The position numbers were made by a program, and so were the translations under genes. The notes under the pieces were generated by a model, which was not told the origin of the DNA, ran no database searches, and was given only the letters and a program-made list of their open reading frames with translations. From the NCBI GenBank assembly GCA_965221125.1, contig CBDCRW010000002.1, positions 64,001 through 128,000 of the forward strand: DNA of 64,000 nucleotides. The letters run 5' to 3'. The first letter of the stretch is position 1; the number at the start of each line of letters is the position of its first letter. This DNA is from Alphaproteobacteria bacterium (lineage in GTDB: Bacteria; Pseudomonadota; Alphaproteobacteria; UBA828). Below are positions 1,139 through 5,427 of this stretch, in pieces.

Positions 1139-1432
1139 TCACGTCGCCAGCACGACCCGGCCGACGATGCGTCCCGCTTTCATGTCGTCCAGAGTCTTCA
1201 AGGCTTCGGCGAGCGCCATCAGCTCGGTCAATTCCGCCGGGCTGCCGACATAGCTACTGGTGAGCATCATCGAGATCAGCGGCGGCAACGGCACCTCGCC
1301 GCCCATCAGACCGACGACGATCACCGTGCCGCGTCGGCCGACGGTGCGCACGACGAAGCCGGCCCTCGCCGCCGCGTCGACGAAATCGACCACCGCCGGT
1401 GCGCCGCTGCCGGTCAGCTTGCGGACCTGCCT
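1139..1432 (-). pseudogene. C-terminal relic of a zinc-binding alcohol dehydrogenase
   Basis: V.KLTG.GA..VVDFV...GTVIVVGLMGG...SYVGS..EL.ELM...G.IVGRVVL. N-terminus missing, with apparent internal deletions. Confidence 0.65.
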
Positions 1433-1483
1433 GACCGCTCAATGGTGCGTGAACCAGCAGGCGCCGTTACGACTCCGGAATAA

Positions 1484-1629
1484 TTCGCCGTGATTTGGCG
1501 AACGACGTCCTTGCCTCGCATCGACCGCCCCCAGACATGGGTGAAGCCGAGGAAGTCGAACGTCGTGGCCGATGCCATCCAGTGACGCCCGTGGGGGCGT
1601 CTCCGACGGAAGTCCACATAGCGCGTCTT
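1484..1629 (-). pseudogene. ltrA: Group II intron RT, distal fragment
   Basis: KTRYVDFRR...FDFLGFTHVWGRS.RGK..VRQITA continues the RT after LHETK once the IS is removed. Confidence 0.85.
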
Positions 1630-1644
1630 CCGTAATGGGGCGGT

Positions 1645-2000
1645 TGATGTCAAACACCGATCTTCACGATCTTCCGGCCTGGCACGGTGGCTCGCACATG
1701 AAGCACCGTAGCCTGTTGCAAATCGAATCACAGGCGCGGTCAACATAGCGGATTGCCATGGCGGGAGCGGCTAACTGACTCGTCTGCGCGGCAAAGAAGG
1801 AAGCGGGATTCCCGGATGTGTCCGTCGCCAGGCTCTCGCTTCCGTCCGTGGTCAGCGCAGCGGCTGCCAACGTCATGCCTGGTCCAAACGATTCCCGAGT
1901 GCCGATCTTGGTCGCGTGCTCGAACGCGATGAAACGGTTCGGCCGACAAGACGCAGCGCGTGCATCAACGGGAACCGCGTCCCGGCGAGGGGACACCGGT
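1645..2000 (-). ncRNA. Putative bridge RNA / seekRNA in the IS right-end non-coding region (boundaries approximate)
   Basis: Contains 8-nt matches to both halves of the reconstructed target (1947-1954, 1906-1913) and to the donor junction (1669-1676), set within predicted stem-loops. Confidence 0.7.
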
Positions 2001-2068
2001 GGATCGCCACCTTCAGGCGCGGCTCTTTCCTCCTCTCGCTTCCGATTGCCGGTGGGATGCAGCCGCGC

Positions 2069-3112
2069 CTATGCCGTCTGGAGCGCCATCGCCTCCTCGC
2101 GCGTGAAGCGGAACTCGGTGCCGTCCCGCCACATCCGGTGAAGTACCACGCCGATGCGCCGGGCCAGGGCGACGGTCGCACGCTTCTTGCCACGGAGCTT
2201 CGCCAGACGAAGCGCCCAGGCCTTCAGCCAGTTCGGCCCGGCGGTGCCGTTCAGCATCACCGTGGCGGCCTGATAGAGCGCGGTACGCAGACCTGCGTCG
2301 CCGCACTTCGTGATGCCGCCGACAATATCTCGCTCGCCGGATTGGTCCCGGCCCGGCGTCAGTCCCACCCAGGGGCCGACATCCTTCGATCTCCGGAACC
2401 GCCCGGGATCGTCAATCGCCGATTTGAAGGTCAGGGCCACGACCGCGCCTACGCCGGGCATGGTCATCAGCAGCCGGCATACCGGATCCTCCCTGGCCAG
2501 ATCGCGGACCAGCTTCTCCAGGCCGGCCAGCTCGCGGCGCAGAGCCACCCGCGCGCGCAGGATCGGTTCGGCGGCGGCCTCCAGCATCGCGTTGCCTGCG
2601 ATCAACTCCCGGACGCGGGCCTCCCAGCGGCCCTTCGAGACCTGGCCCAGCTTCAGGCCAAAGTTGCGCAACACGCCGCGCAGCGAGAGTTCCATATCGG
2701 TGAGCGCGCCCTTCACGGACCTGCGCGAGGTCAGCAGTGCGCGCATCTCCTGCGACGATACCGACTTGCAGTGCACCGGCCTGAACCAGCCCATCTGCAA
2801 GAGCCGTGCGATGCCCTCGGCATCCCGGCGATCCGTCTTGATCGGCATCGCCTTCAGCGCCGCCTTCACCCGCCGGGTCTCCATAAGGACGGCCTCGAAG
2901 CCGGCGTCGGTCAGCCCCTTGTGCAACCAGTGGGACAGGGGACCGGCCTCAAGACCGATCACGGCGATCTCGTGCTCCAGCTTGCCCATGAACGCAACCA
3001 ACGCGTCAGGCGTGCTGGCGACCTGAGCCTCGGTCACGATCTTGCCCTTGTCGCCGATCACGCAGATTGTCGTGCTTGCCAGCGATACATCCAGCCCGAT
3101 ATAGACAGCCAT
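2069..3112 (-). CDS. IS110-family transposase/recombinase (DEDD RuvC-like plus Tnp domain)
   Basis: YIGLDVS, LEAG, KTDRRDA, PGVG and GLTP...QSGE (catalytic Ser region) motifs. Start at MAVYIG (3112). Confidence 0.95.
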   Translation of the reverse strand: MAVYIGLDVSLASTTICVIGDKGKIVTEAQVASTPDALVAFMGKLEHEIAVIGLEAGPLSHWLHKGLTDAGFEAVLMETRRVKAALKAMPIKTDRRDAEGIARLLQMGWFRPVHCKSVSSQEMRALLTSRRSVKGALTDMELSLRGVLRNFGLKLGQVSKGRWEARVRELIAGNAMLEAAAEPILRARVALRRELAGLEKLVRDLAREDPVCRLLMTMPGVGAVVALTFKSAIDDPGRFRRSKDVGPWVGLTPGRDQSGERDIVGGITKCGDAGLRTALYQAATVMLNGTAGPNWLKAWALRLAKLRGKKRATVALARRIGVVLHRMWRDGTEFRFTREEAMALQTA

Positions 3113-3260
3113 GTCGTTGCCCTTTCCTCTCGAAGGATTGGGGCGCGCCTTCCGGCAAGACCCCGTGAGCACGCTGAGCGTGCAAGGGCAACGACACCCG
3201 ATTCGTCGTCATCGGGACAGGCTCCGATGGTACCGATTGGCGCCGAGCCCCATTACGGCA

Positions 3261-4143
3261 TCTTGGTCTCATGGAGCGTGAGCCCGTATCGACCGAGACG
3301 TTTGCCCAGCGCGTCAAGCAGCCGCTTGCCGCTGTGGCGGTCTTCGAGGGCGACGACAAAGTCATCGGCGAATCGCACCAGCTGGCAGTTTCCGCGTAGG
3401 CGCGGTTTCGCCACTTTCTCGAACCACTCGTCCAGCACATGGTGCAGGAAAACGTTCGATAATAGCGGCGAGATCACCCCGCCTTGGGGAGTGCCAGCGA
3501 CCGGCCTGTGCACGGTGCCCTCTTCGAGCACCCCTGCCTTCAGCCATTTGTCGATCTTGCGCCTTGCGACGCCGTCCTTGATCCGCAGGTCGAGGAACGA
3601 CCGGAGGTGGGTGTGCGAGATCGAGTCGAAGTAGGATTTCAAATCCGCGTCGATCACCCATCTTTGGCGCTGCTCGATGATGCCCGCACGCAGCGCGTCC
3701 AGGGCATCGTGAGCCGACCGTCCGCGCCGGAAGCCGTAGGAGCACGGCAGAAAGTCCGCCTCGTAGATCGGCTCCAGCAGCATCAGGATCGCCCGCTGTG
3801 CCACCTTGTCTTCGAACGTCGGGATGCCGAGAGGGCGCTTCGTCCCGTCCGCCTTGGGGATGTAGTGCCGTCGCACCGGCGGCGCGAAGTAGCGGCCCGA
3901 CTTCATCCGGCACAGGAGGTCATCAAGATTGGCCTCCAGGTCCTTCTCGTAGTCGACCGCCGTCACGCCGTCGATGCCCGTCGCCCCATCCTTGCGCGTC
4001 AGGCGATACGCTTCGCGCATCCACTCGCCGTCGATCAGGTGGTGCAGGGACGTGAACACCCGGTCCGGATGCTCCCTCGCCTGTTCGGCTATCCACTGCT
4101 GTTTCGTGTACGTGTTGGTGGAACTCAGGGTTTCCTCCAGCGT
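3261..4143 (-). pseudogene. ltrA: Group II intron reverse transcriptase/maturase, proximal part
   Basis: A.GIDG, RR.YIPK.DG..RPLGIP..EDK..Q, SYGFR.GRS.H.A, D.D...YFD.I, TPQGG.ISPLLSN and RFADDF motifs. The frame is open up to 4149 with no ATG near the expected start. Confidence 0.9.
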
Positions 4144-4839
4144 TTCCCATCAGTGGGTCTGGTCAGGTGACGCCCCGCTTCCCTCCAGCGGGTCCCGATG
4201 GCCACGGTTCCCCGCCTTCAGCGGTACTATCAGGGCGCTACGACTTCCTGCTCCCGCATGTCCTTCGGCTTATTGATTTCGCCAGCCGGCTCCGCAGGCG
4301 CCTGCCAAGTTCGTGTCCGCCCTGTGGGGCGCTCCCGTCGCCGTGCAGACCCGGCGGCGGGCCAGGGTCTGGATTGTTCACGCTGGCAGTCCCCTTTCCA
4401 GCGTCCTTGCCCGCGGGCAAGAGCAGGATCTCCCAGGTTCCCTGGCGATCCATCCCGTGACTCTGCGCCGGTCCACGACCCCGGACGACCCGTTGCGCCT
4501 CGCCATTGGCGGCGCTTCCGGTGCTGCCCCCACGTGCTTAACAACGAAGGCGTCATCGCTTCACCGATTTCGAGGCTTACCCCACCGCTTCGTCACCTGC
4601 TGTCTACGCTTCACGACGGACGTTGCCGCACGCCATGCAAGACTCGCTTCCGGCTGGCGGGCTGCGCCTTTGCCGGGCGGGGGTCGAACCCGCTGGACCG
4701 CGACGAGAGGTTTCAGTTCATGGCATCCTCCTCTCCAGGGCTTACCCTGGCGCAATAAGCATCCGGCGAAGGCCCTTTGGCTCCGTTGAGAGAGGATGGT
4801 GGCGGTGACGGGACGCGCGGCGAACGCGGAGATGCCGGC

Positions 4840-5427
4840 CTACTCGGCTTCCGTCAGCGCGATCACACTGCTGCGGAGTGAATGCAGGAGTTCATCGAGC
4901 GCGCGTCGATCCCCGGCCCCGTACTTCAGGCCCATCGCAACGGTGACGACAAATCGTGCCAACTGGGCGGGCGTCTGGCCGGAGCTGGCAATGGCATCGG
5001 CATGGGGCTCCAGCAATTCGGCAATCAGCGCCGCCTGACGGGCGTGGGCCTCCTCGATCGCCGCCCTTCCCGCCTCGTTGTGACCGCTGATCAAGTCCTC
5101 CGGGTCGCCTGCCTCCTGCAGCATCTCGAAGGACTTCACCACCGTCTCCTCGAAATAGACGTCGAGCCGTTCGCCCAAGGTGCCGCAACCGCCGAGCCGC
5201 GCCCGGATCGCCGCCAGCGACGCCTCCGAGACGTGGCGGATGCACGCCACGATGATCCCGTCCTTGTCGCCGAAGGACGCGTAGACGGTCTGGCGCGACA
5301 CCCCGGCCGCCTCGGCAATGTCCGCCATGGTCGTCTTCTTCGCGCCATAGCGGACAAAGATGCCGATCGCGGCCTCGACGATCCGTGCTTCGGTCTCGGA
5401 GAGGGGGATGCGACGCACGCTGCTCAT
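4840..5427 (-). CDS. TetR/AcrR family transcriptional regulator
   Basis: N-terminal HTH (TTMADIAEAAGVSRQTVYASFGDK), divergent from the SDR gene. Confidence 0.92.
   Translation of the reverse strand: MSSVRRIPLSETEARIVEAAIGIFVRYGAKKTTMADIAEAAGVSRQTVYASFGDKDGIIVACIRHVSEASLAAIRARLGGCGTLGERLDVYFEETVVKSFEMLQEAGDPEDLISGHNEAGRAAIEEAHARQAALIAELLEPHADAIASSGQTPAQLARFVVTVAMGLKYGAGDRRALDELLHSLRSSVIALTEAE

Follow-up and report, generated by a model that had tools for sequence, protein, structure and literature searches.

The DNA examined here is a stretch of 64,000 nucleotides from an alphaproteobacterial genome (contig CBDCRW010000002.1, positions 64,001 to 128,000; hereafter the window, by which the whole stretch is meant), and it contains, near its beginning and on its minus strand, an insertion sequence (IS) of the IS110 family together with a conserved non-coding block downstream of the recombinase gene. 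The element looks intact and is of the IS1111 type, and it very probably encodes a bispecific guide RNA that specifies its own insertion site. The features that delimit the element and its gene are the following.

1627..3261, minus strand: IS110-family (IS1111-type) insertion sequence, 1635 bp including one AG core copy, with ends placed from six copies in the same genome, 58 relatives and a gap in contigs
1628..1627, minus strand: right AG core copy, counted within the 1635 bp
3262..3263, minus strand: left AG core copy, on the target side; in relatives, the two junctions share AG and no other sequence
3247..3258, minus strand: left subterminal inverted repeat CCGTAATGGGGC, present in all six copies and most relatives
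1630..1641, minus strand: right subterminal inverted repeat GCCCCATTACGG, a 12-nt inverted match to 3247..3258
2069..3112, minus strand: recombinase gene, 347 aa, identified by PF01548, PF02371, NF033542 and an alignment to 8wt6

In its layout, the element is organized like a member of the IS1111 group. The repeats CCGTAATGGGGC and GCCCCATTACGG are 12 bp long and lie 3 nt inside each end, within the range of 7-17 bp given for IS1111 subterminal inverted repeats (PMC11208160), and the longer non-coding side is found downstream of the gene, with 442 nt (2068..1627) as against 149 nt at the left end (3261..3113). On the plus strand, the flanks of the element read GCGCG-TCTT...TCTT-GGTCTC (1621-1629, 3260-3270). 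The protein of 347 residues is composed of an N-terminal DEDD domain (PF01548, DEDD_Tnp_IS110, 2.6e-16) and a C-terminal Tnp domain with the Ser motif (PF02371, Transposase_20, 6.7e-22), and it reached 251 bits, against a cut-off of 140, with the NCBIfam model NF033542, “IS110 family RNA-guided transposase”. Solved structures exist for just two of its relatives, the transposases of IS621 and ISCro4, and phmmer aligned the IS621 transposase (8wt6) to its C-terminal half only (E 3.8e-13). The catalytic residues of IS621, as named in PMC11208158, align with D8, E55, D94, D97, and S258, the last of which stands within GLTPGRDQSG; IS1111 recombinases are described as proteins of 330-350 aa whose GL-P----S(T)G motif contains the catalytic Ser (PMC11187229). 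At the level of the sequence, the recombinase is intact and its catalytic residues are present, and in this sense the initial annotation of the window was right to call the system complete: the open reading frame, both ends, and both loops of the RNA described below are all there.

The non-coding block was delimited with a covariance model (R1), and its first part, the target loop, is made up as listed here.

1821..1999, minus strand: conserved bridge/seek RNA block comprising a 5' hairpin, a target loop and a donor loop (R1, 161.2 bits)
1979..1994, minus strand: 5' hairpin GUCCC / GGGAC, with a helix invariant across the alignment
1962..1978, minus strand: 5' strand of the target-loop closing helix (GCGGUUCCCG..G.UGC); of its 13 pairs, 4 have two-sided changes, and 98.1% of cells are paired
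1949..1957, minus strand: right-target guide (RTG type) GCUGCGU+CU, whose columns covary with the right flanks of relatives
1918..1943, minus strand: hairpin between the target guides; 6 pairs, 4 with two-sided changes
1907..1913, minus strand: left-target guide (LTG type) GACCA+AG, with GACCAAG in five of the six copies and TACCAAG in one; it covaries with the left flanks
1888..1902, minus strand: 3' strand of the target-loop closing helix (GCAC.CGGGAAUCGU), from the structure alignment of 32 sequences

One internal loop thus contains two guides, each addressed to a different strand of the target and with matches that overlap at the core, as is characteristic of bridge and seek RNAs. The RTG (7+2 nt) is the complement of AG+ACGCAGC on the IS-sense top strand; the LTG (5+2 nt) is identical to the top-strand left flank and core, and hence pairs with the bottom strand. 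The guide complementary to the top strand stands 5' of that complementary to the bottom strand, which is the order of the IS1111 type, and a conserved AU directly after the LTG continues the match into the left end. As predicted from the sequence of both guides together, the target is GACCA-AG-ACGCAGC.

Most letters of this loop had already been pointed out in the initial annotation, and we found them as described: the minus-strand 8-mers GCGTCTTG (1954..1947) and GACCAAGA (1913..1906), the hairpin CGAAC/GTTCG between them (within 1943..1918), the enclosing stem of GCGGTTCCCG (1978..1969) and CGGGAATCGT (1897..1888), and GTCCC (1994..1990) with GGGAC (1983..1979) on their 5' side. Also, its proposal of an IS1111-type RNA-guided recombinase with guides downstream of the gene agrees with the protein matches and with the location and order of the guides. 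Some boundaries nonetheless need to be redrawn. While the 8-mers are in the right place, their last letters (G1947 and A1906) belong to the conserved UG and AU motifs and not to the variable guides, and the 5' guide reaches three letters further 5', to 1957. The insertion site was located correctly, but its core is AG instead of TCTT (AAGA), the flanking extra A's being common here to target and donor. The interval proposed for the loop, 1880-1995, does hold the target loop, whereas the donor loop lies outside it, at about 1879-1839.

The specificity expected from the guides was found at the other copies of the element. The 4.58-Mb assembly contains six full copies, all at different places, and a 258-bp left-end fragment; R1 has exactly six matches in this genome, which are the six IS copies. 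The left flank is GACCA-AG in five of the six and TACCA-AG in the remaining one, and the right flank is AG-ACGC in four, AG-ATGC in the copy L003, and AAGG in the core region followed by CGC in L005. The match on the right extends to ACGCAG(C/T) in L004, L005, and L006, as the 9-nt guide predicts, where L004 and L006 are alike for about 40 bases on either side and may represent paralogous sites rather than fully independent events. The six sites share GACCA-AG-ACGC(AGC), as predicted by both guides. Unoccupied GACCAAGACGC sites number four in the 4.58 Mb, where base composition would lead one to expect 3.1, and the longer motif of 12 to 14 letters is nowhere unoccupied; an unoccupied paralogue of the L002 site is identical to the flanks of L002 at 58/67 and 44/60 positions. 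The solitary left-end fragment (L007, G000:C6:220871-221126; 258 bp, 95% identical) is preceded by ...TTC-AG, a flank unlike the LTG.

The empty form of the site in the window was found as well, in assembled metatranscriptome contigs from RNA libraries (four runs, the libraries of which may contain DNA). Contigs of the runs X2, X5, and X6, from three studies, skip exactly 1635 bases and join 1625 to 3261 with a 4-base ambiguity, the shorter side of the gap-spanning contigs being 126 bases in one and 19 in the other two. An uninterrupted site therefore exists, and the empty site reconstructed in the initial annotation was real. Given the six GACCA-AG-ACGC-like sites and the empty-site difference of 1635 bp, the element inserts site-specifically and without target duplication. 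In the window, the interrupted gene is that of a group II intron.

3264..4059, minus strand: upstream part of the group II intron reverse-transcriptase open reading frame (the frame with RVT_1, 7.2e-34, is 3253-4059)
1414..1626, minus strand: downstream part of the interrupted reverse-transcriptase frame, from translations of the open reading frames and contigs carrying the uninterrupted gene

The reverse-transcriptase frame runs through the AAG codon that holds the core and is split at E-T-K / T-R, while the RNA domain of the intron is matched by RF02005 at 4469-4686; the group II intron (window 1414-4700, minus strand) is disabled by the insertion sequence. The contigs with the uninterrupted reverse transcriptase, which come from the three studies, have a depth far above that of the element.

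The relation between guides and flanks was then examined across relatives. One genome per species was scanned, which gave 80 loci with recombinases 69-95% identical. Of 86 loci, counting those of the own genome, 58 showed both ends by simple end motifs, and 28 were dropped because one or both ends were missing by motif or the contig ended. The 58 loci reduce to 34 distinct non-coding regions. In these relatives, the left and right junctions have nothing in common but AG, which is therefore assigned as the core. When the 34 regions were aligned with MAFFT, the flanks being excluded from the alignment, two short variable blocks appeared amid near-invariant surroundings: namely, 9 nt before a conserved UG and 7 nt before a conserved AU.GGCAC. 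The 9-nt block is the reverse complement of core and right flank, at 9/9 positions in L008, L018, L019, L021, L025, L065, L076, L078, and L080, and the 7-nt block equals left flank and core, at 7/7 positions in 14 elements. In the 32 regions with flanks of at least 9 nt (L073 and L087 were dropped), the cognate guide-flank match was 6.84/9 and 6.0/7, compared with 4.65 and 3.69 for non-cognate flanks, and in 23 of the 32 the cognate flank pair was unequalled by any non-cognate one. The summed match was 411, and permuted flanks gave a mean of 271.6 (standard deviation 8.6, maximum 311) with none of 20000 permutations reaching 411, a figure that overstates the significance because the relatives are not independent. 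Even among L008-L011, whose recombinases are 93-95% identical, the guides differ and the flanks differ correspondingly, and so many different guide-flank pairs would otherwise be hard to explain. Guide and insertion site, therefore, covary across orthologues (32 elements), as described for bridge and seek RNAs, and the covariation analysis that the initial annotation had proposed gave the result it anticipated, in that the 8-mers change along with the target.

These data can be set against a simpler account, in which the matches arose by chance or were left behind by a self-insertion long ago, and the region guides nothing, being a common 3' untranslated or spacer sequence. When the 439-nt non-coding region was simulated with a first-order Markov model (n=30000, with any of the 7 core-spanning site 8-mers allowed), there was a same-strand match in 2165 cases, a complementary match in 1215, both in 93, and both in the observed order and no more than 80 nt apart in 19. 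Each match alone is thus seen in 4-7% of simulated regions, for which the figure of about 1% in the initial annotation was somewhat optimistic, and the fold energies of the region are unremarkable, both of which would suit the simpler account; the joint match, however, is rare (~6e-4). Chance or a relic would also have to explain guide-flank covariation above all 20000 permutations, compensatory changes in the helices, and six copies in the predicted site versus only four such sites left unoccupied in the genome, and the guide columns were not aligned by flank similarity, the flanks lying outside the alignment. We consider the simpler account extremely improbable.

Recombinases 84-100% identical (L029, L011, L018, and L024/L026) occur in metagenome-assembled genomes (MAGs) labelled Alphaproteobacteria and also in ones labelled Gemmatimonadetes, Binatia, Chloroflexota, and Thermodesulfobacteriota, which could be horizontal spread or misbinning of multi-copy elements. 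Some copies in the Kordiimonas relative are rearranged and end exactly at an LTG, or at an AG, within the RNA gene of another copy (L036, L034). L036, from a Kordiimonas MAG and with a non-coding region of 773 nt, has a partial duplication: a first RNA block breaks off directly behind the LTG and AG-AT, after which come the 3' part of the recombinase gene and then a complete RNA block, and the arrangement looks like recombination at the guide-coding DNA itself. In L034, a second R1 match (L034:2882-3063) leads from the right end of this copy into the 3' two-thirds of the RNA block of another copy, which it enters at GCACUCGGG after an AG; the left flank is unfit for a simple nested insertion.

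As to the RNA structure, 32 of the 34 distinct regions were aligned over the 179-nt block, L036 and L050 being left out because they duplicate L034 there. Paired cells amount to 98.0%, compared with 29-43% in controls with slid partners, and two-sided changes are found at 10 pairs versus 4.3 +/- 1.2 in shuffles (0/500). The 5' hairpin is invariant, so that covariation cannot test it. Beyond the genome of the window, 150 genomes were sampled from the class, 5 of which had R1 matches, and relatives on plasmids (68-72% nucleotide identity, annotated “IS110 family transposase”) are alignable as far as element positions 1424-1445, which is the end of the block. Between the stop codon and the 5' hairpin (window 2005-2065, minus strand), a 9-bp stem, GGCGCGGCU/AGCCGCGCC, and an AGGAGG motif are conserved in most relatives; one contig of the run X2 (depth 4.5) joins 2004 to 2066 without these 61 bases and is either a variant copy or an artefact.

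It might be argued that, instead of serving as a guide in trans, the structure acts as DNA, for example in the form of a folded single strand or a protein-binding site at the right end, or as a cis-regulatory 3' element of the mRNA for the recombinase. Indeed, the block lies within the likely 3' region of the recombinase transcript, and the contigs from RNA libraries give no strand. A regulatory element, however, has no reason to track the target flanks on both strands or the element's own ends, and in homologous systems this region was experimentally found to be used as a protein-bound guide RNA (PMC11187229, PMC11208160). We see hardly any chance, accordingly, that the block acts as DNA or in cis instead of as a guide.

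The 3' half of the block contains a second pair of probable guides, which match the ends of the element.

1875..1879, minus strand: donor guide GGCAU, the complement of the five bases ATGCC with which the left end starts
1848..1871, minus strand: hairpin between the donor guides; 8 pairs, 98.4% paired, with one pair changed from A-U to G-C in 13 sequences
1839..1845, minus strand: donor guide ACGGA+AG, which repeats the terminal bases of the right end together with the core
1829..1832, minus strand: CCUG, a possible long-range partner of CGGG (1984..1981) and a candidate for donor-loop closure, proposed by RNAalifold

The junction of a circularised element would read ...ACGGA-AG-ATGCC..., so that ACGGAAG corresponds to the right end plus core and GGCAU to the complement of the left start; these guides, 5+2 nt and 5 nt long, respectively, have the same geometry as those of the target loop. 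The motif ACNNAAG equals the right end in 32 of the 34 elements and follows the altered ends, with ACAGAAG in L021, L059, and L067, ACGAAAG in L025, and ACCGAAG in L087; L052 and L084 deviate, with G in the RNA for A in the right end. For GGCAU, the match is 5/5 in 27 of 34 elements, the others being four with a G-T or U-G wobble, one with a mismatch (L076), and two with alignment gaps, and changes of the left end are accompanied by changes of the guide: GGUAU with ATACC (L034/L036/L050, partly L052) and GACAU with ATGTC (L082). The long-range CGGG/CCYG helix, whose partners are 165 nt apart, is 98.4% paired with one-sided changes only and is broken in the more distant L092 and L110.

Whether 1879-1829 is a donor loop at all may be questioned. 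In an alternative reading, the target loop is real, but the protein itself reads the 12-bp repeats and a seekRNA of ~80-100 nt suffices. IS1111 elements do have long subterminal repeats; Siddiquee et al. (PMC11187229) describe an abundant RNA of 82-96 nt with both target matches and suggest that recognition of the ends may differ between the two groups. Furthermore, GGCAU is without a core complement, and there is no donor-loop closing helix with two-sided covariation. Nonetheless, ACNNA-AG tracks the right end in five of the seven elements with a differing end, the other two having G for A, which is compatible with wobble pairing, and GGCAU tracks the left-end changes in the L034 group and L082. 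The geometry mirrors that of the target loop, this part of the block is equally conserved, and its inner hairpin covaries. We hence regard direct reading of the repeats as improbable, and the assignment of 1879-1829 as a probable donor loop is retained.

Other pairings in the block were considered and rejected. CCAGG/CCUGG as a donor-loop closure was paired in 49.4% of cells, where the helix was possibly written one column off and a hand check was inconsistent. UGGAC (~1886-1882) with GUCC of the 5' hairpin showed no covariation by eye in L054 and L084. A 7-bp stem, GGAAGCG/CGCUUCC, which would mask the 3' donor guide, is present only in the closest relatives L008 and L009 and lost in others, and is therefore not a feature of the family. 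In the genome G079, a distant relative of the RNA (56-58 bits; e.g., L092 and L110) has at least 18 copies, and its 5' donor guide, CCAU-CU, holds a core complement, unlike that of the window's clade. Its right ends abut REP-like GGG/CCC-rich repeats and were not clean by crude end-finding.

Presence of the region in RNA libraries was also noted: four contigs of the run X1 tile 1623-2531 with 0-2 differences, and three contigs of X5 tile 1638-1991 with none, at 99-100% identity in all, which bears on presence only. Coverage gaps and the stop of X5 contigs at 1991 were considered as RNA ends and discarded, contigs from RNA libraries being unusable for that purpose. A promoter might arise at the junction of the circularised element, for which one candidate box is found.

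1648..1653, minus strand: TTGACA, candidate -35 box of a circle-junction promoter, with an inferred function

All 34 aligned right ends contain TTGAC, in 33 of them equally far from the terminus, and joined ends would put GAAGAT, 3/6 to the -10 consensus, 17 nt after TTGACA. Such a promoter, TTGACA-17-GAAGAT, is plausible but weak; junction promoters have been described for ISEc11 and IS621 (PMC11187229; PMC12288879). Apart from the element and the intron, the window has, upstream of the region studied here, a reading frame of 240 aa on the plus strand (3-725) that is open at the start of the window.

Several observations do not favour a bispecific guide RNA and have to be weighed together. 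In terms of the structure, the 5' hairpin and the CGGG/CCYG helix, the candidate closure of the donor loop, compete with each other, and both lack two-sided changes; when single sequences were folded, they did not exceed shuffles in stability (z -1.01, -0.23), and the minimum-energy fold pairs both target guides with each other. A scan of 1400-4900 with Rfam 15 (E <= 1) matched the group II intron only and left the non-coding region unmatched. No core complement follows GGCAU, unlike IS621, in which the core is included in all four guides (PMC11208160). In terms of the targets, the copy in the window fits the RTG at only 6/9 positions, having the AG core and ACGC and then GCT in place of the predicted AGC, and the cognate flanks are not the best match in 9 of the 32 relatives. 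Among these relatives, the flanks of L013, L016, L058, and L067 fit the guides no better than average, which may reflect off-target insertion, later rearrangement of the flanks, or a limit of the alignment; in the Kordiimonas relative with 18 copies, the right flanks are poorly conserved. In terms of expression, the contigs show neither strand, ends, nor level, with DNA carry-over being possible, and no sigma-70-like promoter or intrinsic terminator was detected in the linear element (scan of 1560-3330). Even with these points counted, we remain highly confident of the guide RNA.

Some of the peculiarities may be joined into a bolder suggestion, a three-way junction combined with left-flank targeting, in which the two loops of this clade are parts of one structure and not separate stem-loops like those of IS621, donor recognition and strand exchange have a geometry distinct from that of IS621, and the elements can recombine with their own guide-coding DNA; we consider this suggestion unlikely, if less so than the direct reading of the repeats by the protein. 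In such an arrangement, CGGG (1984..1981) and CCUG (1832..1829) may close the donor loop, with the target arm branching from its 5' strand, and the 5' donor guide may leave the core unpaired. As for targeting, the left flank appears to dominate in the clade, the right flanks in the Kordiimonas relative being nearly free.

By analogy with IS621 and ISEc11, the bispecific guide RNA would work as follows. The element (1627-3261, minus strand) encodes the DEDD/Ser recombinase and very probably a structured RNA of at least ~170 nt (1999-1821), which would be transcribed and processed from the 442-nt downstream region. The target loop, an internal loop closed by the 13-bp helix and with its two guides parted by a hairpin, would pair with the target, and the donor loop, with GGCAU, a hairpin, and ACGGA-AG in the same geometry, would pair with the joined ends of the element. 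The recombinase would bind this RNA, and the complex would hold the circularised element and the target together while strands are exchanged at the AG core, leaving an insertion without duplication other than the core.

RNA-guided recombinases of the IS110/IS1111 type are under development as tools for genome insertion without breaks, and the structural and engineering work is mostly on IS621 and ISCro4. The clade described here offers an IS1111-type scaffold in which more than 30 natural guide variants stand on a near-constant backbone, namely, a natural series of reprogramming; from it the free positions can be read off (target loop, 7+2 and 5+2 nt; donor loop, 5 and 5+2 nt), as can the fixed ones. 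The initial annotation had called the recombinase probably reprogrammable, a term which the natural retargeting among relatives may justify. For annotation, furthermore, the guides explain why the element is present in unrelated genes with a common motif of 11-14 bp.

The closest comparison is with the seekRNAs of the IS1111-family elements ISEc11, ISPa11, ISKpn4, and ISPst6, reported by Siddiquee et al. in 2024 (PMC11187229). As in the elements described there, the RNA is found downstream from the gene for a DEDD recombinase of 330-350 aa, subterminal inverted repeats are present, two short guides are addressed to different target strands and have the insertion point in common, the guide complementary to the top strand is 5', and insertion is site-specific without duplication. 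What differs is the element's own sequence and its target, GACCA-AG-ACGCAGC. Also, the seekRNA elements were characterised by co-purification, small-RNA mapping, and reprogramming, whereas the window's element is known from sequence alone; it has a second guide pair, which matches the ends and covaries with them, whereas the account in PMC11187229 stresses target-like donor flanks over a donor loop.

With IS621 (PMC11208160, PMC11208158), the element shares what is very probably a bispecific RNA with target and donor loops and two guides per loop with a hairpin between them, one guide being directed to the bottom strand left of the core and the other to the top strand right of it; the catalytic D, E, D, D, and S residues are also shared. 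The core is 2 nt in both, CT in IS621 and AG, on the recombinase-sense strand, in the window's element. In the nomenclature of Durrant et al., where LTG and RTG are defined by side and strand (PMC11208160), the 5' guide is the RTG and the 3' guide the LTG, so that, compared with IS621, the guides of the loop come in the opposite order while the rule of side and strand is the same. Unlike IS621, the window's element has its RNA in the right end and not the left, long (12 bp) subterminal repeats, and a 5' donor guide that does not cover the core. Bridge RNAs were predicted by Durrant et al. in 93.0% of the IS1111 elements of ISfinder, at the right end (PMC11208160), and the present RNA is of the same class and in the same location, a typical member by that survey. 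The element is, therefore, a further example of the IS1111 bridge/seek RNA class described in 2024, and the known mechanism is unchanged.

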